Below, one piece after another: positions 3,469 to 63,187 of a DNA stretch of 64,000 nucleotides (its first letter is position 1; every line of letters begins with the position of its first letter). A model generated the notes under the pieces. The model had not been told where the DNA came from. It worked only from the letters and a program-made list of their open reading frames with translations, and did no database searches. Location: positions 77,314,001 to 77,378,000 of the forward strand of contig NC_043001.1 of NCBI RefSeq assembly GCF_006345805.1, written 5' to 3'. The stretch is from Octopus sinensis. Its lineage: Eukaryota. The position numbers and the translations under genes are program-made.

Positions 3469-3780
3469 GGCCATCCGAAAATCGCTATGAAAAAATACCG
3501 TTATATAAAGGGAAATTACTGTGTTATAATTCTGCTCGCGAACCCACGTGCGTACTTATACTTCACTATGAAAACGTACACATCTTCACTCGCATTTTTC
3601 GCCAAATATATACGCATATATATACAAACTCATACACACACATGCGTACCGTAAAAGTTCATACATACGTCTATATACGCACAAGCACATACGGCTAATC
3701 ATTTCGCCCGGCGTGCTAACGTTTCTGCCAGCTCGCCGCCTTTATTGCACAATACCACCGTACTAATACTTCAAAACCGC

Positions 3781-4233
3781 TAATACAAATGGACCAGCAC
3801 ACGATCGTTTTAGGAAGGATATTATCCAATTAATGAAATACTTCGGACTTAGTATAACTATAGATACTAACCTGACGGTTGTCAATTTCCTAGACGTTTC
3901 CTTACATCTAAATAAGAATATTTATAAGCCTTATTGGAAGCCCAATGATAAACTTAGTTATATTAATGTAGGTTCATACTATCCCCCTATAGTATCCAAA
4001 AATTTTGTTAAAAATATTAGTAAGAGAATTTCTAGCCTCTCCTCCGATAAGGATATTTTTAATAGCGTTGCCCCAGTTTATAATAAGGCTTTAAAAGATA
4101 GTGGTTTTAGCGAAAAAATAAAATATACACCTGTTACTAGCCCAACAGTAAAGAAGAGGAAAAATAGAAATAGGAAGATCATCTGGTTTACACCCCCTTA
4201 CTCACCTGAGGTGACCTTCAATATAGGTAAATC
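3781..4233 (+). mobile_element. Penelope-like element RT C-terminal/linker fragment
   Basis: ORF 3833-4255: VVNFLDVSL, YKPYWKPNDKLSYINVGSYYPP, RKIIWFTPPYS are typical PLE motifs. Confidence 0.85.
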
Positions 4234-6074
4234 TTTTATCTTGACTATTGAGTAAATGTAACATATTTTATAGATAAACTTCCTCTATTTACATAATATT
4301 GAGGTCTTTTTCTTTCTTTTGTTATCTTACCGTTTTTACCAATATATATATATATATTATATATATATATATATATATAATATATATATATATAGATATA
4401 TATATATATATATATATATATACGGATAAAAGAAATAGTAAAATATGATTAATGAATAAAGACTAATATGAACAATGACGAAAAGTTATCAAATATAATT
4501 AACAAGCTGAGAATAACAAGGAGAATAATAAAATGATTAATGAATGGAAACTAATGCAACTATTGATTAGAGAACATAACGGAAAATTGCAAAGTAAGAG
4601 AGATATTAATTTCTTCAATATATAGGAACAACAAACAAAAATGACGAAATTGTGATTAACGAATTAAGATTAACTTGAATAAAGATTAATGAATAATAAA
4701 GTGACAATAGCTGTAAAGGTGTTTTCAAGAGTGTTTTAAACATTAAAAAAATATATAAAAAAATGAATATAGAATAATGTATAACGGGAATGAAATTAGG
4801 AGTAAAGACTAATAAAGCAGGAACAATAAAAGTCTTTGAAGAATATTGAAATCTCAAAGATTCCATTGTTCTGTGAACGGAATGGTCGTTCACTAGAATT
4901 GGATTTTCCCTTTGATGTATCAATATTCTATTGGAAGCAATGTTATTGATAAGCTAAATGCGTACACTCTCATTCCCACACATATATGTACATGCATATA
5001 CACACACTTATATAGAATTTATTACATATACTTACATACATACAAACATAAACCAGATGAAGCCTTCTCGTAGCTGATACATGTGCTAGAAACAGCAACC
5101 AAATCTCACTAAATTTATTTACTACCATCTTACGTATGGAAATAATACATCCAATAATACATCAGGTGGCCAGGATTAAAAAGCATCTAATCATGGGTAT
5201 AATCAATCAGGACTGACCTGGGGCTGAACAACAACAATATTAACGAACTCATACAGAGTTGATTCGTATTATTTCAGTTAATAAGAGCCTCATTGAACTG
5301 TTAATAGATAACCAGGTTTTGAAAACGGATGATCAGGTCCCTCTGTTTTTCTGGTCGAGAGAGCACTATGCTAGGTTGGTTCAATCGTGATTCTTACCCC
5401 CCCCCCCAAAAAAACCATGTTACATATTAAGTATTATAATAAAGATTTTATTATTTTTTTTGTTGCCGAGCTCGTATCATCATCCGGTGTGTGTTTGTGT
5501 TTATCTTACAATATGTGAGGTTTAAGTAGATGAGGAACAAACCTACTTCACTCCTGAATAAGTTTCTAGGTTATTGTAAGTGGGTTTTGTCTTTGTAAAT
5601 CAAGAATGGTACTTTACTTCAACAAAATACTTGCACGTGCTGTTGCTGCAATTGGCGCAACATTAGATCATGATGTCATTTTGTAAATGAAGTTCCCCTT
5701 ACAAATGAAAGAAAAAGCAAAACAACTGTACTGTTTAGAAAATGTTGTTTGATAACGGTAAGAGTGCTTCTCTCTGCCCTGATTTTAAGTTGGTCATTTC
5801 TTGTTATTGATGAGTGCTGGTTGCAGGAAGCCATTAGATATGGATTAGTAGCTATAGTTATTACAAACACATACAATAGATCCTATATTCTTTAAGCAAA
5901 AGAGTGTACTGGGCATTTTTGATGTGTTTGTGCAACATAACGATATACTATCGTTGCTATTCTCAGTTGAGAGCTATCAATGGATATAAATATTAAATAT
6001 AAACGCGGATTACAAACAAGAAGAAAGAACAAAACAGAAAGAATAAAACAAAGAATAAAACAGAAAGAATAAAA

Positions 6075-6590
6075 CAGAACTACTTGATAAAGATATTCCT
6101 ATTCCACTTCTGAAAGTCTATTTACTCTTCGAGCAAATGGAAAGTTTGATAAAGCGTATGCGATGGAAGGCTTACGACAACGATAAAGGCATGAAGAAGA
6201 GGACCAGGCACGGGGAACACGACCTTAGATTCAAATGCCGGAAATGTTCATCTGAAAACAAAGACTCAGATGCCTTTGAAAATGTCCACATTTATTTAAT
6301 CAAGAATAAAATATTCAGAAGCAGAATCAATAATTTTTAACATAAGCTAAGCTAGAATATAAACACAATAAAATTCCCTAAAAACGTGTTCGTATTTGCT
6401 GAGAAAACAAGGAAATCTGTGAGTTAAGTAAAGATTCCTACAACAACAACTTATACAATGACGCCATAGTTTCCTACAAAACATCTAAGAGTGGCTTATC
6501 GAAAGAAATCAAGTGAAAAGCACAACACACAGCTACAAACATAAAATCTCAGTAATACTAGAATGACATAATAAAATACAAGACTTCATT
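6075..6590 (+). mobile_element. Penelope-like element N-terminal fragment
   Basis: KDIPIP ... ESLIKRMRWKAY ... VFVFAEKT (PLE 'ADK' region), with stops and frameshifts. Confidence 0.7.
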
Positions 6591-8924: not shown

Positions 8925-9523
8925 AAAGCAAAATCAAACATCCAATCAGCATCATGGTGTTTGGAGTGATTGGTAGCGATGGCGACGTTATGCCTCCATT
9001 CATCTTCCCACACGGCCTCAAAATCAACACGAGACCTACATAAAGGGTCTGGAGCAAGTAGTACTGCCCTGGGTGAAGAGGGTTGCTGCTGGAAAAAATG
9101 TATGTCTAGCAACAGGACCCTGCATCATACCACACGAGCAGCAGAACTCAGTTATAGCTGTTGTCAGACAATTTCTGTACCACATCACCCCTAACATCTG
9201 GCCACCTAACTCCCCAGACTGCAACCCCCTTTATTACGTGTGGGGTGCATTTGTGCGAGAGACCAACAAAACTCCTTGTAACACCAAAGATGAACTGAAG
9301 GCAAAGATTATGGCAGCATTCACCAACTTAAAAAGGGAAACCACCCAGAAGAGTTGTAGGAGATTCTGAAGTCATCTGGAGATCGTGGTTGAAGCCATTG
9401 GCAATTTCATTGGATAAATTTACTCTTTAGTATGTAATTTTGCTTGGTATATCTATTAAAATAAGATGTCAGTGTTATTTTTATTTTTGCGTAATTTAGA
9501 CAATTTAATCATCGTTCACTGTG
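8925..9523 (+). mobile_element. Tc1/mariner DD37D (maT-like) 3' half
   Basis: KHPISIMVFGVI, PFIFPHGL, QQD ... WPPNSPDCNPL. Same family as 61822-63187. Confidence 0.85.
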
Positions 9524-10734: not shown

Positions 10735-10886
10735 TTTTATTCTTTTATTTGTTTCCATTATTTGACTGCTGCTATGCTGCAGCACCGACTTTTGAAGGGC
10801 AATTCGACCCCAGGACTTATTCTTTGTAAGCCAAGTACTTATTCTGTCGGTCTGTTTTGTTCAACCGCTAGGTTACAGTGACGTAA
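10735..10886 (-). mobile_element. SINE A 3' part abutting truncated mariner
   Basis: GACCCCAGGACTTATTCTTTGTAAGCC matches the 18.4 kb copy. Confidence 0.75.
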
Positions 10887-11731
10887 TCGACAAGGGAAGT
10901 GGCAGAGAAAATGGAATGCTCTCACACTGCTATAGAGAAGCATCTTCACTCGATAGGAGAGGTTCAGAAGTATACAGTATGGGTTCCGCATGCTTTAAGT
11001 GACAACAACAAAAATCAATGAGCCACAATCTCCGCTGGTTTGCTTGCTCGTCACCGCTCAACTCATGGTCACAAGCAACGATTTCTTTACCGAATTGTTA
11101 CTGGCGACGAAAAATGATGCCTGTACATCAATATGAAGCAGCGTAAGGAATGGCTTAGCCCCGGTAAACAAGCGACACCGCGAGTGAAACATGATCTTCA
11201 TCCACGTAAAACGATGTTGCGCGTATAGTGAGACTGGGAAGGAATTATCCATTACGAATTGCTTCAACGGAACCAAACGGTCAACGCGGAAGTCCATGTT
11301 CGACAGATGGAACGACTCAACACGGCTATTCAAGAGAAAAGACTTAACTCTCAGCATGGGGTTCTTCTGCTGCACGACAACGCCCGCCCTTATATCGCCA
11401 ATATGATCAAGGAAGCCATTGAAACGCATGGCTGGGAAGTGCTGCCACGCCCGCCGTACTCTCCTGATATAGCACCAACGGATTTCCACCTCTTACGATC
11501 TCTTTCAAATGATATGCGTGGAGTTTCGTTCATTACTGATGCAGAATTGAGAGCTTGGTTGGATCAATTTTTCGAGTGAAAATCGAGGAATTGAAAATTT
11601 TGTTAAACGTTAGGAAGAAGTTATAAACAAGAGTGAATACATTATTGATTAATTAATTGTTAGTTTTTATTAAACCTTTTAAAAAATTGAAATAAAAAAA
11701 AAACGGCGGTAACTTAGTTGCCAACTCAATA
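10887..11731 (+). mobile_element. mariner (DD34D) element, 5'-truncated pseudogene
   Basis: WVPHAL, IVTGDEK, HDNARP, YSPDIAPTDFHL motifs and right TIR AAAACGGCGGTAACTTAGTTGCCAACTCAATA. Confidence 0.92.
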
Positions 11732-11751
11732 ACATATATACATATACATAC

Positions 11752-11827
<76 letters not shown>

Positions 11828-11983
11828 TATGTATATACATATATATATTCATATATATTAATATATATATATATATATATAAATATACATATATTTATAC
11901 ATTATATATATATAATATATATTATATATAATATATATATATAGTATACATATATACATATATATACCGATATAACCAATATA

Positions 11984-17794: not shown

Positions 17795-18357
17795 TATATA
17801 TAATATATATATATATAGTGAGTTTGTGTAACGTAATTAATATTTGATGATATATGCAATGTACGCCCCCCACACATATCTATATATATTGTGAGTGTGT
17901 GTGTAATATAATTTATATATATTTGTAATATTTTTTCATATATGTAATGTATATGTACGAACCAAGCATTTTATCGATCTTATTGGTATTTGAACCTAGA
18001 ACATAAAGAACTAAGAAATATCGCTAACGTATCTGCCAGCTCACCGGCTTCTAACAACAACAACAACAACATCAACAACAATAATAATAATAATAATAAT
18101 AATAATTGCTTATTTTGGGCAATCTCTACAGGTTTCAAGAGAATAAAACACAGATATATCAGAAATATTTTCAATCAGTTCCAACAAGTTTCAGTCCGTA
18201 CGTTATATATCAAATATGTTTAATTTGCTACGATGTCTAAAATCTAATGTGATCCCAGTTTGAGTCGAAGTTGTTTGTGAAGTTTTCTCTGGATGAAGCA
18301 ACATTATTTATAATTTGTTCGAACTTCGCTTTGTTTATCCTGAATCGGTATATGCTT

Positions 18358-18835
18358 TACTCTTTACTCTTTTACTTGTTTCAGTCATTTGACTGCGGCC
18401 ATGCTGGAGCACCGCCTTTAGTCGAGAAAATCGACCCCAGGACTTATTCTTTGTAAGCCTAGTACTAATTCTATCGGGCTGTTTTGCCGAACCGCTAAGT
18501 TACGGGGACGTAAACACACCAGCATCGGTTGTCAAGCAATGTTTGGGGGATAAACATAGACACACAAACACACACACTACACACACACACACACACGACA
18601 CCACACCACCCACACACCACCCACACACACACACACACACACACACCCATATATATATTACATATACATATGTACGACGGGCTTCTTTTAGTTTCCGTCT
18701 ACCAAATCCACTCACAAGGCTTTGGTCGGCCGGAAGCTATAATAGAAGACACTTACCCAAGGTGCCACGCAGTGGGACTGAACTCGGATCCATGTGGTTG
18801 GTAAGCAAGCTACTTACCACACATCCACTCCTGCG
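18358..18835 (-). mobile_element. SINE A, full-length
   Basis: Complete 3' tail, internal (CA)n and A/B-box head. Confidence 0.9.
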
Positions 18836-20381
18836 GTATGTTGACGTTACAACTAAGTCGAACTGTTGAGAAACATGTTTCAAATGTTGTCACAGATATT
18901 AATCAAGAACAAGGATCACTTTACACCAATGAAGTTCTGACAACTGACTCAACACTACAGTAAACTACCACACATGTGCAGTCTTCCTGAGATTCATAAG
19001 GACGGTATTCCATTAAGACCTATAGTGAGCTGTAGAGATTCAGCATGTCATCCACGAGTCGCTTCCCTTGTGGATATAATCAGTTCATTAGCAGGAAACT
19101 CTACATCGTACGTGAAGAATTCCACCCACAGAATTGCGCAAGGATACCACCATTGAATGCAACCAGATGGTGAGTCTAGATGTAATAAGTCTGTTCACCG
19201 AAGTCCCAACTGTTGAAGCACTATCGGTGATTCAAGAAAAACTAGTGACAGACACCCATCTAAAAGAACGCACTAGTATACCAATAAGAAACTCGATGGA
19301 AATGTGACCTTCTGTGTAGAAACTATCTACTTCAGTATGGACACTGATATATTATATATCGACAAGAAAAGGGTTCGCCATTATCACCGATAATAGCGAA
19401 TATATACATGGAATACTTTGAGAATTTGTCTTTAGGATCAACACCACTAAAACCAACCCTATGGCTGCGATATGTTGATGACACCTTCATACTCTGGCCC
19501 CTCTAGGAAGATGTCCAAGTGCTGTTAGATCATGTGAACTCAATAAAGCCATCTATACAGTTCACAATGAAAAAAGAAAAAGAAAATCAGCTAGCGTTCC
19601 TGGACGTATTAATAACACGCACCAAGTATGGATTCAGGTCATCCGTATACCGCAAGCCGACTTTCACTGGACGATACCTCAACTTCAACTCCCACCATCC
19701 ATACAGTGTAAAGAGAGGGATTGCTCAGAGCAATGAATATAAGTAGCGATCGTGATACCCACCACGAAGAAATGATCAAGCTCAGTAACAATCTATTAAG
19801 CAACAAGTACCTCAAAAGCATACTCTCCGCTCCAGTTATGAAGGAAAGAGGGGATGAAACCGATAAATTGTCCACAGGCTGTCTAACCTAATTGAAAGGG
19901 ATCTCCGAAAAGATACAAAAGACATGCGGCCCATATGACATCAGGACAGTATTCAAAAGTAATACAACACTTCGCAAATATCTCCTTCGAGTAAAACCAC
20001 CAATAGAAGAGAGCATGACCAAGAACTGCGCGTACTCCATGCCATGCAATTGTGGTAAATTATACAAAGGCGAAACATGCCGCCCTCTCAAAATAAGGGT
20101 AGACAAACATCGCAAAGCTGTGATATAGGGAGATATTGTTTAAATCGGGTATAGCTGATCATGTATGGAAAAATAGAGACCACCTCCCCCTGTAGGATGA
20201 AGTTAAATAATAGACAGAGAACACCACTGGAAAATACGAAAACTAAAAGAAGCAGGACATATGCTAGGACTCAACAACCTCCTAACCAGACCAAGTGCAG
20301 ATATGAACAGCATATAAGAACCAGTATTAGGGAAGGATAGGAGAATATTAGCTTTATAAGCCCTAAAATTCACCAATAGTT

Positions 20382-20450
20382 GCCCACGGGCGTATGGCGG
20401 AGAGGTTAAGAGCGCGGGCTACTAACCCCAGTTCGATTACAGGCAGTGAG
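20382..20450 (+). other. tRNA-like sequence in PLE 3' UTR
   Basis: TGGCGGAGAGGTTAAGAGCG (A box/D arm), GGG-CTACTAA-CCC anticodon arm, GTTCGATT B box. Confidence 0.7.
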
Positions 20451-20525
20451 CTTAATAATAATAATAACAACAACAACATCAAAAATACCTTAGGAATGAG
20501 AACACAGGTTCAAAATTTCCCAAAG

Positions 20526-20569
20526 ACACCTGATGAAGACTGGAGTGTATATCAGCCGAAATGTTGTGT
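20526..20569 (+). ncRNA. Minimal type I hammerhead ribozyme
   Basis: ACAC-CTGATGA-A-GACTG...CAGCC-GAAA-TG-TT-GTGT; the 28.8 kb copy has a fully paired GGCTG/CAGCC stem II. Confidence 0.75.
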
Positions 20570-21532
20570 TAACAACAAACAAGATGAGGACAAATATTCG
20601 TCAAATATAAATAATGTATATTTTTCAACCGATTCAGTCAAGTTACGTCTTGTTTCCATAGGTATTCACTTCGCCTATTTACCTGAGTTTATTCATATTT
20701 CTAGCACCATACTAGTTTTTTGTGGTTCTGTTGTTTAAATCGGGTTTGAACCAGTTTAAACTAGTCGCGTGGAATAGTTCAATCCCCATTACATACTCCC
20801 ATAAACATATACCGCTCCTCACCTCTTTCACTATGAACATATATACGTAGACACACATATATATATATTGTATACATCCATACATATATTTGTATCTATC
20901 TATCATTTATCTATCTGTACATCCTACTGTCTGTCTGTTTGTCTGTCTGTCTCTATTATATTTTACAAACACACTCACACATTCACTTACTCTCACAGTC
21001 ACGCACACACACACCCATATACATACATACATACATGCATACATACATACATACATACATACATACATACATACATACATACATACATACAAATATATGT
21101 GTATACACAAATACATACATATATGTATTATACATAAATGCATACCTATATCTATCTACTTTAGAAATACGCACACACATACACACATATACACTCGCAA
21201 AGGCAAACATAGAGTATGTATGCAACAAGCCCAAATTCATATGTTTAGTGAAATATAATGTGAAAGATGGAAGATATTATTTTAGAAACGCGTTTTATTA
21301 TCAAAATATCTAATAGTAAGATATGGTGATAGCCAGTTTGAAAACCTCTAAGACACTACATATAGACGCATTCCTATAATATACACACCCGCAGTCATTC
21401 AAAATGTCGTCTCTACATACATACACAGGAATACAGAACAGCAGACACAAGACACACGCACACTCTACAACAATTAAAGATGTAAGAACAGATTTTTATT
21501 GGAGTGTATGTCTACATATGTATGTATGTATG

Positions 21533-24281: not shown

Positions 24282-24515
24282 TACTAAAGCCAGTAAACGT
24301 TTGTAACCAAAGCCAAATAACTGAAGCAGGGTACTCATAGCTTACATGTATCCCTTTTCCAGTCATGAAATGATAAAATGCGTTCAATGATATATCTTAG
24401 TCATGCATTGCATTGTATCTATATCTCCATATATGTGTATATATATATATATATATATAATACATATACATGCATACATACATATATACTTATATATATG
24501 TGTGTGTGTGTGTGT

Positions 24516-25757
24516 GTTCCTGCCGGTTTTTAAATCTAAATCTTAAAAGGTTTAATAAAAAATAACAACTAATTAATCAATAATGTATTCACCCTTGTTG
24601 TTTCCAACGTTCAACGAAATTTTTTCCACTCGAAAAATTGATCCAACCAAGCTCTCAATTCTGCATCAGTATTGAAGGAAACTTCGCACATAGCAATTGA
24701 AAGAGATCGAAAGAGGCGGAAATCCGCTGGTGCTAAATCAGGAGAGTACGGCGGGTGTGGCAACACTTTCCAGCCATGCGTTTGGATGACTTCCTTGGTC
24801 ATATTAGCGATAGGAGGGCGGGCATTGTCGTGCAGCAGGACTCCATGTTGACGATTAGGTCTTTTCGCTTTAAAATCCGTGTTGAGTCGTTCCATCTGTT
24901 GAATCTAGAGTTCCGCGTTGACTGTTTGGTTACGTTCAAGCAATTCGTAATGGATAATCCCTTCTCAGTCAGTCCCACCATACGCACAACACCATTGTAC
25001 GCGGATGAAGATCTTGTTTCACGCGCGGTGTCGCTTGTTTACCGGAGCTAAGCCATTTCTTACGCTGCTTCATATTGATGTACAGGCATCATTTTTTGTC
25101 GTCTGTAATGATTCAGTGAAGAAATCGTTGCTTGTGTCCATGAGTTGAGCGGTGACGAGAAAGCTAGCCAGTGGAGATTGTAGCTCATATATTTTTGTTG
25201 TTGACACTTAAAGCATGCGGAACTCATGCTTCGTACTTCTGAACCTTTCCCATAGAGTGAAGATACTTCTTTATAGCTGTGTGAGAGCATTCCATTTTCT
25301 CTGACAATTCCCTTGTCGTTTGACGAGAAATTTCGTGCAAAAGTTGGTTTAATCGCTTTTTATCGAACTCAAAAGGACGGCCAGAACGAGGTGCGTTTGA
25401 GGTCAAAATTTCCATTTTTGAACTTTGCATACCAACCACGAGCAGTTCTTTCAGCTATGGCATCCTCTCCATACACAGCACAAATGTCGGGAGCAGCTTT
25501 TGCGGCCTTAGAACCTTGATTAAAAGCAATAAGGAGGAGGTGTTGAAAATGCTCTTTTTCTTACCTTGACAATCCGTTTTAATGACCTGAAAATAAACAA
25601 AAATTAACTAAAATTAACTAGAAGAAAAAACAAAACGAAATAGATTCCAAAATCATTCAAAAATAGAATTCTCGAAAAACATAGATTCCCAAATTTAAAA
25701 ACACAATAAATTTCTAACTTAAAAAAAAACGGCAGGAACTTAGTTGTCAACCCAATA
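24516..25757 (-). mobile_element. mariner (DD34D), near full-length pseudogene, same family as 10887-11731
   Basis: HDNARP and HPPYSPDLAPADF motifs plus an N-terminal HTH (ICAVYGEDAIAERTARGWYAKFK). TIR at 25721-25757, with a partial TIR at 24516. Confidence 0.92.
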
Positions 25758-28770: not shown

Positions 28771-28911
28771 TACATTATTTACATTCGACGGATACTTGTC
28801 CTCATCTTGCTTGTTGTTAACACAAAGTTTTGGCTGATATACCCTCCAGCCTTCTTCAGGTGTCTTGGGGAAATTTCGAACCTGGGTTCTCATTCCTAAG
28901 GTATTTTTTGA

Positions 28912-28992
<81 letters not shown>

Positions 28993-29113
28993 CATTATTA
29001 TTATCATTATTATTATTGTTTTTGTTATTGTTCATGTCCCTGCTTGGAATCGAACTTGGAATCTTGGGGTTAGTAGCCCGCGCTCTTAAACAATACGCTA
29101 TATGCCCGTGGGC
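28771..29113 (-). mobile_element. Stand-alone tRNA-head + (AAT)n + HHR unit homologous to 20382-20618
   Basis: Same order and sequence. HHR at 28820-28863 has a CTGAAGA core with GAAA decayed to AAAA. Confidence 0.85.
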
Positions 29114-31991: not shown

Positions 31992-32110
31992 TTTATATTA
32001 TATTTCCTGCATTTAGACTGAGCTGACGTATTTTTGTCCCCAAACATTAGTTAACTTGAGCGATACATTTTCTTTTGTTCGATAGAGTTTTCATTGGATA
32101 TATTAACACC

Positions 32111-32340
32111 TATTTCTTTACTACCCATAAGGGGCTAAACACAGAAAGGAAAAACAAGGACAGACAAACGGATTAAGTCGATTATATAGACCCCAGTGCT
32201 TAACTGGTACTTATGTAATCGACCCTGAAAGGATGAAAGGCAAAGTCGACCTCGGCGAAATTTGAACTCAGAACTTAACGGCAGACGAAATACGGCTACG
32301 CATTTCGCCCGGCGTGCTAACGCTTCTGCCAGCTCGCCGC
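32111..32340 (-). mobile_element. Young SINE B flanked by a 120-bp direct duplication
   Basis: 31992-32111 is nearly identical to 32341-32460. Confidence 0.9.
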
Positions 32341-33689
32341 TTTATATTATATTTCATGTATTTAGACTGAGCAGACGTATTTTTGTCCCCAAACATTAGT
32401 TAACTTGTGTGATACCTTTTCTTTGGTTCGATAGAGTTTTCAATGGATATATTAACATCTAACGTGTTAGATATTTCCACCTGTTTTGCAAGAAATTAAA
32501 TTAATCTATGTATATTTGTATATGCTTTAGTCGCTTAGAATGTAAGCAACATTTATTTGATTTTTATATAAAGAAAATATGTAAATTTTATTCCAAATTT
32601 TCGTTAATAATGCCGTCGCATATGCAAACCAACAAACACCAAAGCAAAAAAAAAAAAAAATCAAAATAATAATTAGAAATTTGATCATTGAGAGGCAGAG
32701 TATTCTTTTATGCGTTTCAATCCAGGGGCCGAAACACAAATGTTTCAGAAATATATTTTGCATTTTCAGAATATTCAATTTCCAGAATAGTGTCATTTCC
32801 AAACTTTTTCAACAATTCTTTGATGTTTCTCTCCGACAACACAAAACTGGCACCACACACACGTCGATGGACAAGATGCATGCGTTACTCTGGACTGAGC
32901 AGGCGTGATTTGATTCAATATTTTCCTAAAGACTTTCAACATTTTATATTCCATGTGTGCTAAGTTTGTATTTCAGGTAATTTTGTTCTTGGATTGTAAA
33001 AAGAAGAAAAATATCGTAATTCTACTGAATATGTTAGTTTTTCTTTGGTTCAACGTGACTTTCATTTGATATATTAACACCTAACGTGTTGGATAATTTC
33101 ACCTGTTTTACAAGAATTTAGATTCATATTTTTACTTGTTTTCGTCTCATTCCGAGAAGGTGACTTTATTTTACATTAGAAAATATTACGTCAGTTTTAT
33201 GCTAACATTTTGATATATTTACCCTTGGACAGCAATAAGTTGTTGACTATGTTAACTAACAAATATCAAGCTAAAGGAATTTAGTAAGAAGTGGGAATTT
33301 AGTTATTGCAAAGCAGAGCAGTCTATGAAAGTCTTTTGAAACTTCACATTTCCCGAATATTATCTTTTTCAAAATATATATTGCAGTAATTCTGTGATAT
33401 TTCACATCGATAGCAACAAGAGTCACGCACAGGTACGTATACACAAATGTCGATGAACAACAGTTGGGCTGAGCTGATATGTTTGTGTTCACTATTTTAC
33501 CAAGAACTTTCTGAATTTTATTATACTCCACGCGTGTATGCTTGTATTTCAATCAAGTCAGCTATATTTATTTTTATTTAAAAAAAAGCTAAAAAGACGT
33601 AATTATATCAAATATTTTATTTTTCGTTTATGAATTTGTTTTGCAAGATTCCTGATGTGAAATCGTGTGTTGAAACGGATATTGTTATA

Positions 33690-38251: not shown

Positions 38252-39347
38252 TATTTCTACTCTAGGTACAATGCCTTGAAACTTCTTGGGGATGGGGGTA
38301 GTCGATTACATCGACCCCAGTGAGTAACTGGTACTTATTTCGTCGACCCCGAAAGGATGAAAGGCAAAGTCGACCTGAATGGAATTTGATCTCAGAAAGT
38401 AGCGACAGGTGAAATACCGCTTAGCATGCCGCACGGCGTGCTAACGATTCTGCCAGCTCGTCAAAAGTTTCTACTATAGGCACAAGGAGTGAAATTTTGA
38501 GAGAGTGGGTTAGTAAATTCCATAGACCAATGTACTCAACTGGTAGTTATTTTATCGACTCTGAAAGGATGAACGGTAGAGTCGACCTCAGCAGAATTTG
38601 AACTCAGAACATAAAGACGGATGAAATGCCGCTAACCGTTAAGCTCGGCATGTTAACGATTCTACCATCTTGCTGCCTTAATGATAACGATTTCAAATTT
38701 TGGCACAAGGCCAGTAAAATTTGCAGAAGGGTTAATTCGATTATATCGACTCCCAGTGCTCAACTAGTGCTTATTTTATCGACTTCAAAAGGATAAAAAG
38801 TAAAATCGACCTCGGCAGAATTTGAACATAGAACTTAAAGACGGACGAAATGCCGGTAAATATTTTTCTCGCAAGTCTATAGATTCTTATTTCTTTAATG
38901 CCCACAAGGGGCTACACACAGAGGGGACAAACAAGGACAGACCAACGGATTGAGTCGATTATATCGACCCCAGGGCGTAACTGGTACTTATTTAATCGAC
39001 CCCGAAAGGATGAAAGGCAAAGTCGACCTCGACGGAATTTGAACTCAGAACGTAGCGGCAGACGAAATACCGCTTAGCATTTCACCCGGCGTGCTAACGA
39101 TTCTGCTAGCTCCCCGTTTTAAAGGTTTCACATTTTGGCACAAAGCCATCGACTTCGGGGCGTGGGTAAGTCAATTACATCGACTCCAGTACTCAAGTGG
39201 TATTTGTTTTATCGCCTCCGAAATGATTACCGAAATGATAAAAATGTAAGTCTTCCTCGGGGGAATTTGAACTCAGAACAAAGAGACATACGAAATACTG
39301 CCAAGCATTTGCCCGCCGTTCTAACAATTCTACCGACTCGCCACCTT
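38252..39347 (-). mobile_element. Head-to-tail array of five SINE B-related copies
   Basis: Repeated GGTAC/GTTATTTTATCGAC ... GAATTTGAACTCAGAAC units at about 38.25, 38.47, 38.69, 38.89 and 39.12 kb. Confidence 0.85.
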
Positions 39348-48227: not shown

Positions 48228-48458
48228 GGCGGCGAGCTGGCAGAAACGTTAGCATGCCGGGCGAAATGCGTAGCCGTATTTCGTCTGCCGTTACATTCTG
48301 AGTTCAAATTCCGCCGAGGTCGACTTTGCCTTTCATCCTTTCGGAGTCGATTACATAAGTACCAGTTACGTACTGGGGTCGATCTAATCGACTTAATCCG
48401 TTTGTCTGTCCTTGTTTGTCCCCTCTGTGTGTAGCCCCTTGTGGGCAGTACAGAAATT
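48228..48458 (+). mobile_element. Young SINE B inserted in older SINE B-like copy, with TSD
   Basis: TATTTCTTTTGGC at 48218-48230 and 48461-48473. Confidence 0.9.
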
Positions 48459-50947: not shown

Positions 50948-51520
50948 TTAAACTTAAATGTTGAAGTGAATCGAACGGCTTTTGTGTGTTTCTTAAATGG
51001 CTTACAAACACCTTCCACGCTGCAATTGTTTTCGTTTCAGCACACGATCTCAGATCAAGTCACTTGCTATGCGAGTACATCTCCGTAATAAATAAAAGTG
51101 AGTCTTTAAAAAAAATTGTCCGAAATAGATAGTTAATTTTGGGACACTGTATTTATCGACTTCGGTAGCGTAAAGGGTAAAGTATACTTTGGCGAGATTT
51201 TCAGTCGAGTGTAGGGAGTACAAAGGAACGTAGTAAGCCATTTAATCCGAAACATACGATTCTTGCAACTTGTTTCATACACAAACATGAGCGAACACTC
51301 TCATATGCATATATATCACATATGTACATACATTCATGTGTGTATGTATGTATATTTATATATATATATACATATACATGCATATATGTATATATGTGTA
51401 TGTTTATGTGCCTATGTACATTGATACCTATATGTGCATATATTTATATGTGTGTGTATCTATGTGTATATGCATTTATGCGTATGTGCATTTATGTGTA
51501 TTTGCATTTATGTATATATA

Positions 51521-51915
51521 CAGGAGTGGCTGTGTGGTAAGTAGCTTGCTAACCAACCACATGGTTCCGGGTTCAGTCCCACTGCGTGGCATCTTGGGCA
51601 AGTGTCTTCTGCTATAGCTCCGGGCCGACCAATGCCTTGTAAGTGGATTTGGTAGACGGAAACTGAAAGAGCCTGTCGTATATATGTATATATATATGTA
51701 TGTGTGTGTGTTTGTGTGTCTGTGTTTGTCCCTCTAGCATTGCTTGACAACCGATGCTGGTGTTTTTACGTCCCCGTCACCTAGCGGTTCGGAAAAAAGA
51801 GACCGATAGAATAACTACTGGGCTTACAAAGAATAAGTCCCGGGGTTGATTTGCTCGACTAAAGACGATGTTCCAGCATGACCGCAGTCAAATTACTGAA
51901 ACAAGTAAAATAAAA
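51521..51915 (+). mobile_element. SINE A, full-length
   Basis: GGAGTGGCTGTGTGGTAAG, GGTTCAGTCCC, internal microsatellite and A-rich tail. Confidence 0.92.
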
Positions 51916-52450
51916 AAAATAAAAGAAAACAAATATGTAGGTATACATGTATGTGTACGTATGTATATACATGTATGTATATGTATGTATATACATGTAT
52001 ATATATATGCATATGCATGTACTTTTATGTATGTATGTATACATGTACGTACATGTATCTATATACATGTATGTACATGTATTATGTGTATGCTTGCGTG
52101 TATGTATATGCGTGTGTAGATATGTAAATATATGCGTGTGCGTATATATGTGTACTTTGAACACATGTATTATGTATATGTGTATGCAATTATATATATA
52201 TATGTATATGTATGTGTGTGTCTATGTAAATATGTATGTATGAATGTGTACATATGTATGCATTTGTATGTGCATGTATGTGCATGTACATACATGCACA
52301 CACACACACACATATAACAGACAAGGAAGTGAAACAGAGAGAAACGAAAAAAGAAAGTGAGAAGGAAAATGAAGCAAAGTATAGGCTTGAGGGGTACGTA
52401 AGTCCAGGTCTTAAACTGTGTGTATGTGACAGAGAGAGGGGGAGAGAGGC

Positions 52451-55450: not shown

Positions 55451-55921
55451 GAGGATAAATGAATGGGTAGATGGATGGGTGAGTTATAGGTATATATAAT
55501 ACAGAAAGAAATTAAATGTAAATGAATATTTGTATAAAAGTAAAATCTAATAGAGAAAGATCATTTAGGGTTTAATGGACTTGTCTCTATGACATATTCA
55601 GTATTCCATATAACCTTATAGATACAGCCTTATAGATACAACTCTAAAATCGTTAGTTCGCCTGACAAAATGCACAACCACATTTCTTGCATCTCTTTAC
55701 CTCCTAACTTCGAATTGCACCAAGGTCGACATTGCTTTTCATCCTTTCAAGATAAATAAATTAATGAGTACCACGTAACCACTGGGATCAATGTAATCGA
55801 TTAGTCCCCGCCCAACAAAAATGTTAGGCCTTGTCTATAATTGGAAGAATTATATATATATATTCTATACACACAGCCTTATGTATGCAACGTTATATAT
55901 ATATATTTTTTTTTTTCTCAC

Positions 55922-56152
55922 TTTCTCTTTCTCTTTTACTTGTTTCAGTCATTTGACTGCGGCCATACTGAAGCACCGCCTTTAGTCGAACAAATCGACC
56001 CCGGGACTTATTCTTTGTAAGCTCAGTACTTATTCTATCGGTCTCTTTTGCCGAACCGCTAAGTAACGGGGACGTAAACACACCAGCATCGGTTGTCAAG
56101 GGGGACAAACACAGACTCACAAACATATACACACACATACATACATACATAC

Positions 56153-56185
<33 letters not shown>

Positions 56186-56401
56186 ATATATATATATTAT
56201 ATATATATAATATATATATATATATATACACACACATATATACGACGGCTTCTTTCAGTTTCCGTCTCACAAATCCACTCATAAGGCTTTGCTCGGCTCG
56301 AGGCTATAGCAGAAGACACTCGCCCAAAATGCACGCAGTTGGACTGAACCCGGAACCATGTGGTCGGTAAGCAAGCTACTTACGACACAGCCACTCCTGC
56401 G

Positions 56402-56403
<2 letters not shown>
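55922..56403 (-). mobile_element. SINE A, full-length
   Basis: Closely matches the 18358 copy. Confidence 0.92.
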
Positions 56404-56460
<57 letters not shown>

Positions 56461-59339: not shown

Positions 59340-59516
59340 TGTATGTAAGTATGTATATGTACACACGCGCGCGCGCAAACACATATACTCACATACACAT
59401 GAAATGTCATGTATATACAGGGATTAGGGAGGTCATATAAACAATGAATAACTCGATACTTTTAATTTGGGGCGTATGTAGATACGAGTACATACATATA
59501 TACATACATAATATAT

Positions 59517-59912
59517 AGGCGTAGCTGTGTGGTAAAAATCTTGCTTCCCAACAACATTCTCCGGGTTCAGTCCCACTGAGTAGTACCCTGAGAAAGTGCT
59601 TTATAGTATAGCTTTGGGTCGACCAGATCCTTGTGAACTGATTTGGTAGACGGAAACTGAAAGAAGCCCGTGGTATATATATATATCCATACACTTATGT
59701 GTGTGTGTGTTTTTGTGTCTATGTTCCCCCCCCCACATCGATTGACAACCGATGTTGGTGTGTTTATGTTCCCGTAGCTTATCGTTCGGCAAAGGACACC
59801 TATAGAATTAGTACCAGGCTTGCAAAGAATAAGACCTGGGATCGCTTTCGTCGACTAAAAGGCATGGCCGCAGTGACATGACTGAAATAAGTAAAAAATG
59901 AAAAGAATAAAA
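59517..59912 (+). mobile_element. SINE A
   Basis: A/B boxes, internal microsatellite and tail. Confidence 0.85.
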
Positions 59913-59926
59913 GAATATATATATGT

Positions 59927-59960
59927 ACTAGCCTTGAAGCCCTACTTCGGGCGGCACTCG
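59927..59960 (-). mobile_element. Candidate Helitron 3' terminus
   Basis: Minus strand GCCCGAAGTAGGGC hairpin followed closely by CTAG|T. Confidence 0.45.
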
Positions 59961-61821: not shown

Positions 61822-63187
61822 TAAGGTGCGACAGGTAAATTGTTGCCATTTTGAATTTTTTACTTTACGCATTGCTTATTTTTAATTTTATCGACAACAC
61901 AAACGCCGTCTGTGAGAAAAACAGTACCATGTCGCAATTCAGTCTGCCAGAAATTTGAAAATTACATGCTGTACTGCTTGGCATTCGCGACAGACATTTC
62001 AGTGTGTTTGGGTGTTAATCTGAGGACAGTGCAAAGGATTCGGTGAGAGCTGAATAAGTCTAATGGTGATTACGATGGTACGGCAGCTCGGAAATCTCAC
62101 TCTGATCATTCCAATGAGAAAAGATCTCCTGAATTTCTTGGTGAGATGTGAAAGGGTCAATTTTTATCCCAAGCCATCAAGGACAAGAAGAAAGACCGCG
62201 CTACGAAGCATTTGAACAAATTCAAGCATCTCTTCCAACCGAATATGCTTTCGTTTTTCTGAGACAAGAAAAATTTCTGCCAGGATCAGATAGTGAACAC
62301 ACAGAGCAACCGCTGGCTTGCCGTGTCGCCAATAACATGTACCGAGACTGATAAAAGTCAAACATCCAGTCACCATCATGGTGTTTGGAGTGATCACTAG
62401 TGATGGCAATGCTATGCATCCATTCATCTTCCCACACGGCCTCAGACTCAACACGGAGGCCTACATCAAGTGCCTGGAGGAAGCAGTGCTGCCCTGGGTC
62501 AAGAGGGTGATTGCTGACGAACCTGTGTCTGACAACATAACTCTGCACTATTTCTTTATTACCCACAAGGGGCTAAACACAGAGGGGACAAACAAGGACA
62601 GACATAGGTATTAAGTCGATTACATCGACCCCAGTGCGTAACTGGTACTTAATTTATCGACCCCGAAAGGATGAAAGGCAAAGTCGACCTCGGCGGAATT
62701 TGAACTCACAAGGTAACGACAGACGAAATACGGCTACGCATTTCGCCCGGCGTGCTAACGTTTCTGCCAGCTCGCCGCCTGCACTATGCCACACAAGTAG
62801 GAGAACCCAGTCATAGCTGTCAGACAATTTTTGCGACCACATCACCCCTAACATCTGGCCACCCAACTCCCCAGACTGCAACCGCATTGATTATTATGTG
62901 TGGGGCGTAGTTGAGCGGGAGCCTAACAAAACTCCTTGTAACACAAGGCAAGGACTATAGCAGCATTCACCAACTTAAACAAGGAGACTGTCCAGAAGGG
63001 TTGCAGGAGATTCCGAAGTCGTCTTGAGGCCGTGGTTGAAGCCAACGGCGATTTCATCGAATAAATTTACTGTTTAATATTTCAAGATATTTTAATGTAA
63101 TTTTGGTAAATATATCTGTTAAAATGTGATGTCAGTATTATTTTTATTTTTACGTTATTTAGACGACAGTTTATTCATTGCACCCTA
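61822..63187 (+). mobile_element. maT-like DD37D element with both TIRs, interrupted by SINE B
   Basis: TA-TAAGGTGCGACAGGTAAATTGT / ACAGTTTATTCATTGCACCCTA-TA; KHPVTIMVFGVITSDG, WPPNSPDCN. Confidence 0.9.
62549..62779 (-). mobile_element. Young SINE B with TSD
   Basis: CTGCACTAT at 62543-62551 and 62779-62787. Confidence 0.92.

Follow-up and report, generated by a model that had tools for sequence, protein, structure and literature searches.

The locus raises the question of whether a tRNA-like segment located between a GIY-YIG open reading frame (ORF) and a hammerhead ribozyme is a regular part of a Penelope-type element (PLE), where it could act as a promoter, or an accidental neighbor of a single copy. 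In the window, i.e., the whole 64,000-nt stretch of Octopus sinensis DNA analyzed in this study, the initial annotation had placed a tRNA-like head, an AAT/AAC tract, and a minimal hammerhead behind the GIY-YIG ORF, and all three parts are indeed located there, in what we call copy 1. Together these parts form the 3' terminal repeat (pLTR) of a Penelope/Poseidon-like family, abundant and of Octopus type, that has a second copy (copy 2) in the window as well. The features are as follows.

18887..20359, plus strand: decayed, 5'-truncated Penelope/Poseidon-type ORF, RT then C-terminal GIY-YIG (Pfam RVT_1, tblastn)
20360..20381, plus strand: spacer of 22 nt from the last stop to the head (from the sequence; bin covered in four of four runs)
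20382..20453, plus strand: tRNA-type head with A box, hairpin, and B box (60 of its 71 aligned letters agree with copy 2)
20395-20405, plus strand: A box within the head of copy 1
20416-20428, plus strand: anticodon-like hairpin within the head of copy 1, 3 bp and a 7-nt loop
20431-20440, plus strand: B box with one mismatch, at the conserved C61
20454-20477, plus strand: (AAT)4(AAC)4 tract, 3' of which the read depth increases
20496..20618, plus strand: pLTR tail, equal to the first 41 codons of the ORF (ATG at 20496; the family 3' end lies 123 nt from it, at 20618)
20526..20569, plus strand: minimal type I hammerhead from a structure-constrained scan, predicted cut after 20565
28771..29113, minus strand: copy 2, ORF-less and SINE-like, with the first base of the head, a long (AAT)n, the tail, and the same 3' end

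The RT of the copy 1 ORF is recognized by Pfam (RVT_1, E 3.7e-7), and 723 relatives at E<=1e-20 were found among the 1543 candidates compared. Alignment with full-length relatives by tblastn is continuous over 18887-20341, including the GIY-YIG-type C-terminal region; the EN piece of copy 1 on its own has no Pfam match, and no extra Cys linker upstream of the GIY-YIG motif was seen in the copy 1 sequence. An RT followed by a C-terminal GIY-YIG in one ORF is the arrangement of EN+ PLEs, and it is broken in copy 1 by several stops and frameshifts, with the last in-frame stop at 20357-20359. As judged from domain order, hammerhead, and tail, the element is a member of the EN+ PLEs, and its placement with Poseidon is likely; the tree of 29 rows contains no labelled clade references. 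The amino acid identity of copy 1 to the Anolis protein P0118, presumably the PAc protein, is 56-58% (57.6%) over the RT core. Because its ORF is not intact, copy 1 is not autonomous; the term "autonomous PLE" used in the initial annotation is therefore not appropriate for this copy, which is a decayed, 5'-truncated relic. The ORF is abutted on its 5' side by a SINE ending near 18833. Just upstream of the ORF fragment, the segment at 18837-18885 (plus strand) weakly resembles the tail; one of six comparisons gave P 0.01. The other PLE fragment of the window is only 23-26% alike to the copy 1 family: it is a piece of a second, distant PLE RT at 3767-4255 (plus strand, 23-26% identity), just behind a SINE piece. 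We take the segment at 6059-6340 (plus strand), near this distant RT, to be a possible PLE N-terminal fragment.

The head of copy 1 lacks 9 nt at 20430/20431 that are present in copy 2 and in the reads. When these missing nucleotides are put back, the box spacing becomes tRNA-like, and in heads of the copy 2 type the A and B boxes stand at tRNA spacing, as in SINEs. The A-box and B-box pair occurs once in the window, in the head, versus 0 to 2 times (mean 0.5) in 10 shuffles; the pair alone is thus within chance for 64 kb, and its weight lies in its place 23 nt behind the ORF and in its recurrence in other copies. With default settings, ARAGORN calls no tRNA at the head, which it reports only at a relaxed threshold where the window yields an uninformative 221 calls. 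Rfam calls neither tRNA nor hammerhead in either copy, with only chance-type matches up to E 10, and the head and hammerhead segments fold no better than shuffles (z 0.07 and -0.05 to 0.23). Given the missing tRNA calls and the folding z near 0, the designation "tRNA-like" of the initial annotation rests on the promoter boxes, their spacing, and the anticodon-type hairpin with its 7-nt loop, not on a cloverleaf. The exact head motif had no match in the viral and metagenome contigs.

A frame beginning at an ATG of the A box (20394-20618, plus strand) is open for 75 codons through the head, the AAT tract, and the hammerhead to the 3' end. It is also open in the predicted peptide P0276, and one extra A breaks it in copy 2. 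This frame could be chance or an N-terminal extension, and no longer protein with head plus tail peptide was found among 23 candidates. The head might accordingly not be derived from a tRNA at all, but be plain UTR or coding sequence extending the N-terminus, with a chance resemblance to the A and B boxes. This agrees with the lack of Rfam and ARAGORN calls, with the 0.5 A and B pairs per shuffled window, and with the frame shared by copy 1 and P0276. We nevertheless consider it hardly probable, since the A box, the 7-nt-loop hairpin, and the B box follow one another in tRNA order and, with the 9 nt counted, at tRNA spacing, whereas the frame is interrupted in copy 2 and its peptide matched no longer protein.

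The hammerhead of copy 1 has four of four pairs in stem I, four of five in stem II, intact CTGATGA and GAAA boxes, and a broken stem III palindrome. In copy 2, stem II is perfect and the GAAA box is broken; both hammerheads of the window are thus damaged, and their lesions differ. The minimal hammerhead scan gave two matches in the window (20526 and 24844), whereas 30 locally shuffled windows averaged 0.1; the match at 24844 has a non-canonical core. In PLE ribozymes, a base is described as bulging before stem II, the closing pair as G-C, and stem III as palindromic (PMC4209133, in the part available). The same three traits are found in the present sequence, the palindrome being damaged in copy 1. 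A subfamily without 3 nt in stem III at 20562 accounts for 483 of 4272 RNA reads and has contigs in all three DNA-type runs. A hammerhead motif in the metagenome contig L001 turned out to be an unrelated coding stretch, and the viral contigs gave no match.

The 41-codon frame from the ATG at 20496 runs through the hammerhead to 20618 and is open in copy 1 and copy 2. In a tblastn-type comparison, the tail peptide matches residues 18-48 of the full-length relative P0075, and tail peptides of a sister family extend into a motif located near the N-terminus of full-length P0236 and P0075. The pLTR therefore overlaps the ORF start in the manner of PLEs, in which the 3' end lies about 110 to 120 nt into the ORF (here +123). 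A UniRef entry of 51 residues from Octopus bimaculoides shares 78% identity with the tail peptide, so the tail is present in that species as well. Because the tail is the N-terminus of the ORF, the head would occupy the usual PLE promoter position in a tandem array, with about 110 nt from the head to the start codon of the downstream copy. The promoters of Penelope and Chlamys-3, which are described as of Pol II type, are located at the corresponding site upstream of the start codon and overlap an intron (PMC8557442, sections available).

Copy 2, located 8 kb from copy 1, has its first base at the equivalent of 20382, which leaves 13 nt ahead of the A box, and its last base at the equivalent of 20618. 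Its head and tail are identical to those of copy 1 at 60 of 71 and 127 of 141 positions, respectively, while the flanks are unrelated (14/42 and 22/47). No target-site duplication was found at copy 2, the flanks of which align no better than shuffles (P 0.77); such duplications are described as often hard to discern in PLE insertions (PMC8557442, sections available). Copy 2 is the only head-initiated dispersed copy in the 64-kb window (n=1). Both copies are monomers and differ in this respect from retrozymes, which consist of tandem hammerhead units. The flanks of copy 1 seemed to hold an inverted repeat, which was rejected (P 0.35). A third, independent copy is represented by P0276, in which an Asn tract joins the 3' half of the head to the tail, and its score was reached by none of 500 shuffles. 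For the comparison of tail peptides, 18 of 19 matches were used, P0271 (a repeat-rich protein) being excluded as unrelated. The head is visible in one of these 18 (P0276); P0272, P0283, and P0286 carry other sequence upstream in frame, and many tail peptides cannot reveal the head because they begin at the Met of the tail.

The head was further assessed by mapping read depth over 18830-20800 at 80% likeness in 4 of 24 listed public runs (X1, X2, X9, and X24), namely one contig set from each of the organisms A, B, and D plus a raw RNA run from D. The depth increases from 5' to 3' along the ORF fragment, as 5' truncation gives. The ratio of the bin holding spacer and head to the mean of the four preceding ORF bins is 0.88, 0.93, 0.73, and 1.05 (X1, X2, X9, and X24), and the ratio to the single preceding bin is 1.83, 1.55, 1.12, and 1.21, which leaves room for many solo heads. 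Only past the AAT tract does the depth increase 6- to 30-fold (hammerhead bin to head bin, 22.8, 30.4, 17.1, and 6.1). It drops steeply at 20618, and loose ends pile up at 20615-20618 in all four runs. Among the 24 loose ends listed, beside 2284 others, none is located at the ORF/head junction, 4 fall at the 9-nt gap, and 9 lie around the 3' end, with diverse, AT-rich flanks beyond 20618. Since the 3' flank of copy 1 is covered in X1 only and has zero depth in the other runs, the signal in three of the four runs comes from other copies.

As no contig piece across the ORF/head junction is among the matches listed (24 of approximately 60,500 pieces), we infer the linkage of ORF and head from the continuous depth and from the fact that no listed loose end falls at the junction in the four runs, i.e., ORF-bearing copies normally run on into the head. 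The initial annotation had taken a head missing from most PLE copies to mean a one-off SINE insertion; for ORF-bearing copies, the continuous depth in four of four runs points the other way. Under such a one-off juxtaposition, an independent SINE family composed of head, AAT tract, and PLE-derived tail would have landed behind the ORF fragment, and ORF copies would end differently. The ORF-less copy 2 in the same window, the homing of PAc to its own ORF-pLTR junction (PMC11167929, in the part available), the lack of a junction-crossing record among the matches listed, and the head bin at 1.12 to 1.83 times the preceding bin are in keeping with it. We judge it very improbable, because no large depth step and no listed loose ends occur at the junction in any of the four runs, three of which lack the copy 1 flank.

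Summed contig depth is not copy number; read with this limit, the ratios give an estimate for solo heads of none to about 60% of head-bearing copies, and the flank depth of 52 in X1 suggests, as a rough order-of-magnitude figure only, that head-bearing copies number in the thousands and bare tails in the tens of thousands. Most members of the family are just the 60 to 140 nt located 3' of the AAT tract. Just 5' of the predicted cut, at 20562, the depth has already reached 72 to 96% of its bin mean; most copies thus do not start at the cut, and it does not seem that hammerhead cleavage determines where genomic copies begin. Inverted hammerhead tails in RNA loose ends, together with opposite-strand joints, form a PLE-type insertion structure. 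No tandem junction of the copy 1 family was seen in the depth data or in the window.

The 3' region of the sister family bears on the origin of the head. Ten of 229 relatives reach the C-terminal motif, and six of these read on for 11 to 36 residues beyond the stop. By the C-terminal motif, the six group with P0004, i.e., with the branch nearest copy 1 (73-78% identity over the RT core in a tree of 29 rows). They have no head likeness in any frame (local scores of 8 to 24, without a null distribution), over a read-through that covers only 30 to 110 nt of the sister family 3' region. Because the nearest sister has another 3' region, the head was either gained in the copy 1 lineage or lost in the sister. 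The simplest history, as inferred from the sequences, would be a fusion of a tRNA-SINE bearing an (AAT)n tail with the pLTR of the PLE, in which the AAT tract may have been a favored nicking site. Two to three tandem copies of an approximately 41-codon hammerhead tail were observed in P0273, P0284, and P0285, which belong to the sister or a related family; these could form a retrozyme-like array that would permit dimeric hammerheads.

Whether the promoter is used was considered from RNA reads and from sequence composition. The RNA run of D, which consists of fragmented cDNA reads, shows no start peak at the head and equal depth in both mate directions. On the sense strand of the element, no run of four T is found in 1732 to 1789 nt, as compared with 5, 1, 4, and 3 such runs in four other coding fragments of the window (489 to 618 nt). 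The P value of this absence is 0.016 to 0.05 with composition nulls and 0.09, 0.22, and 0.33 with dinucleotide, synonymous-codon, and trinucleotide nulls, respectively, and it is weak evidence of Pol III read-through. The captured promoter proposed in the initial annotation is thus borne out as to the family-wide presence of the head, by depth, and its position about 110 nt upstream of a tandem ATG, whereas the RNA start peak is absent.

Part of these data would be accounted for equally well by a passive passenger, i.e., a tRNA-SINE with an (AAT)n tail that inserted once in the 3' UTR of a master PLE before its expansion and does no promoter work. Copy 2 would then be a chance truncation, and the head would be the family consensus all the same. 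Depth continuity and the absence of the head from the sister family fit this explanation just as well, no RNA start is seen in the RNA run, and the T-run signal is gone under the stricter nulls. The reads are mostly 80 to 95% alike to copy 1, and neutral decay of the boxes might not show yet in a family that is perhaps this young. It accounts less readily for the start of copy 2 at the first base of the head when most truncations lie 3' of the AAT tract, and for the head occupying the promoter position of a tandem unit. We regard it as unlikely, although it is the main rival of the reading we favor.

On balance, we lean toward the reading that the head would be a SINE-type Pol III promoter that became fixed in the pLTR, works there, and spawns hammerhead-bearing SINE-like copies. 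In this proposal, a SINE-type head of tRNA origin, together with its (AAT)n tail, entered an ancestor of the family at a site between the ORF stop and the hammerhead tail. In a tandem array, Pol III would start at approximately 20382 and transcribe the head, the (AAT)n, the hammerhead, and the next ORF. The RT-endonuclease would bind the ORF-start region, nick AT-rich DNA, and start cDNA approximately 123 nt into the ORF, as in PAc. A stand-alone, head-initiated copy such as copy 2 is the expected product of full-length cDNA from head-initiated RNA and would be a hammerhead SINE mobilized by the PLE. ORF-bearing copies such as copy 1 would derive from multimeric RNAs of greater length. The (AAT)n tract probably has two roles, as a favored nicking or landing site (PAc prefers ATT) and as the main truncation point. 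The stronger version, in which the element would be an autonomous retrotransposon with an uncapped Pol III mRNA as well as the direct parent of a hammerhead SINE, seems improbable to us. Against the favored reading stands the argument of Kojima that the processivity of Pol III restricts such elements to short RNAs, so that their autonomous partners have to be transcribed by Pol II (PMC10886601, sections available).

The element was compared with known systems as far as the available parts of the sources describe them. The Penelope/Poseidon-clade PLEs PAc (Anolis carolinensis, PMC11167929) and Pen2a_Av (Adineta vaga, PMC3846280) and the octopus element have in common an RT followed by a C-terminal GIY-YIG and a pLTR with a minimal type I hammerhead and the ORF start inside it. 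In addition, their 3' end lies approximately 120 nt inside the ORF, copies are truncated at the 5' end, pieces of the pLTR occur inverted, and the flanks are AT-rich. The ORF of PAc begins in the hammerhead, its cDNA starts 111 to 118 nt into the ORF at an AC-rich site, its endonuclease prefers ATT, and insertion does not depend on hammerhead cleavage (PMC11167929). Rotifer pLTRs contain the first 12 to 22 codons, and their promoters are of the Pol II type with TATA/Inr-like motifs (PMC3846280). The ATG of the octopus element is located 34 nt upstream of the hammerhead core, whereas it is at stem II in PAc-type PLEs. The described PLE pLTRs contain no mention of a tRNA-type head in the sections available (PMC11167929, PMC3846280, and PMC8557442).

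Copy 2 has the same build as Schistosoma Sm-alpha/Sj-alpha, short non-coding repeats in which a type I hammerhead comes after a promoter of the Pol III type (PMC6765202 and PMC8490949). Sm-alpha is non-coding and often tandem, with no autonomous parent bearing the same head named in the available text of these sources. The octopus head and tail, unlike Sm-alpha, are the terminal repeat of an ORF-bearing PLE with a minimal PLE-type ribozyme, and the resemblance of copy 2 to Sm-alpha appears to be one of architecture only. Animal non-LTR retrozymes, like copies of the copy 2 type, are non-autonomous hammerhead sequences from PLE pLTRs (PMC7229834 and bioRxiv 10.64898/2026.07.22.740005); they are tandem repeats giving circular RNA, and no tRNA head or Pol III promoter is mentioned in the parts available (PMC7229834, PMC7761336, and bioRxiv 10.64898/2026.07.22.740005). 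The TRIMp3 elements Cassandra, Helenus, and Ajax have a small-RNA-derived Pol III promoter in the terminal repeat, as the octopus PLE appears to, and this promoter has been proposed to stem from insertion of a SINE into the terminal repeat (PMC10886601). They are non-autonomous LTR elements with PBS and PPT, unlike the octopus PLE, and their autonomous partners are expected to lack the Pol III repeat, whereas the ORF-bearing octopus element carries the head (PMC10886601). This non-autonomous TRIMp3 group comes closest as a precedent for a terminal repeat with a Pol III head. The octopus SINEs OK, OR1, and OR2 (Ohshima and Okada 1994, cited in PMC4758252 and PMC3531059) likewise have a tRNA-type head; their likeness to the present head is by description only, and a hammerhead or PLE tail is unmentioned in the available text of the two citing papers.

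The remainder of the window consists of features of other kinds. No host gene was detected by Pfam on 90 of 152 filtered open frames, which gave one transposase fragment only (Transposase_1 at 11232-11576). Mariner-like transposase fragments occur in two pairs (8977-9512, 10882-11849, 24386-25325, and 62778-63178). An abundant SINE-like family of approximately 235 nt has full copies, 86 to 93% alike, at 2243-2480, 2643-2876, 32108-32348, 38885-39123, 48228-48457, and 62548-62780, in addition to fragments. A second SINE-like family with a CA/TA microsatellite middle is found at 18349-18833, 51513-51945, 55894-56406, 59508-59927, and other sites, and one of its copies adjoins the 5' end of the PLE fragment. 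These other SINE families presumably resemble octopus SINEs. The segment 42738-43941 is a direct tandem duplication with a period of approximately 516 nt and 90% identity.

SINEs are parasites of LINEs. In the full-text literature covered, mostly by title and abstract, a tRNA head in a PLE pLTR is undescribed; Repbase, Dfam, and Ohshima and Okada 1994 may already contain the family. The available parts of the octopus repeat papers make no mention of such a head (PMC13282606, PMC8967140, PMC9115989, PMC4758252, and PMC3531059), and three short motifs of the element are absent from the full texts of the papers searched. Because the family is abundant in octopus-type genomes, automatic annotation may list its pieces separately as "Penelope," "SINE," and "simple repeat." Pol III promoters in terminal repeats have so far been described for non-autonomous LTR elements only, in the available parts of the literature covered. 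If the favored reading is true, the octopus family would provide a concrete route from a PLE to a hammerhead SINE of the Sm-alpha build, the mobilizer of which was only proposed, and it would offer a testable system for PLE transcription, which has so far been mapped in very few elements.
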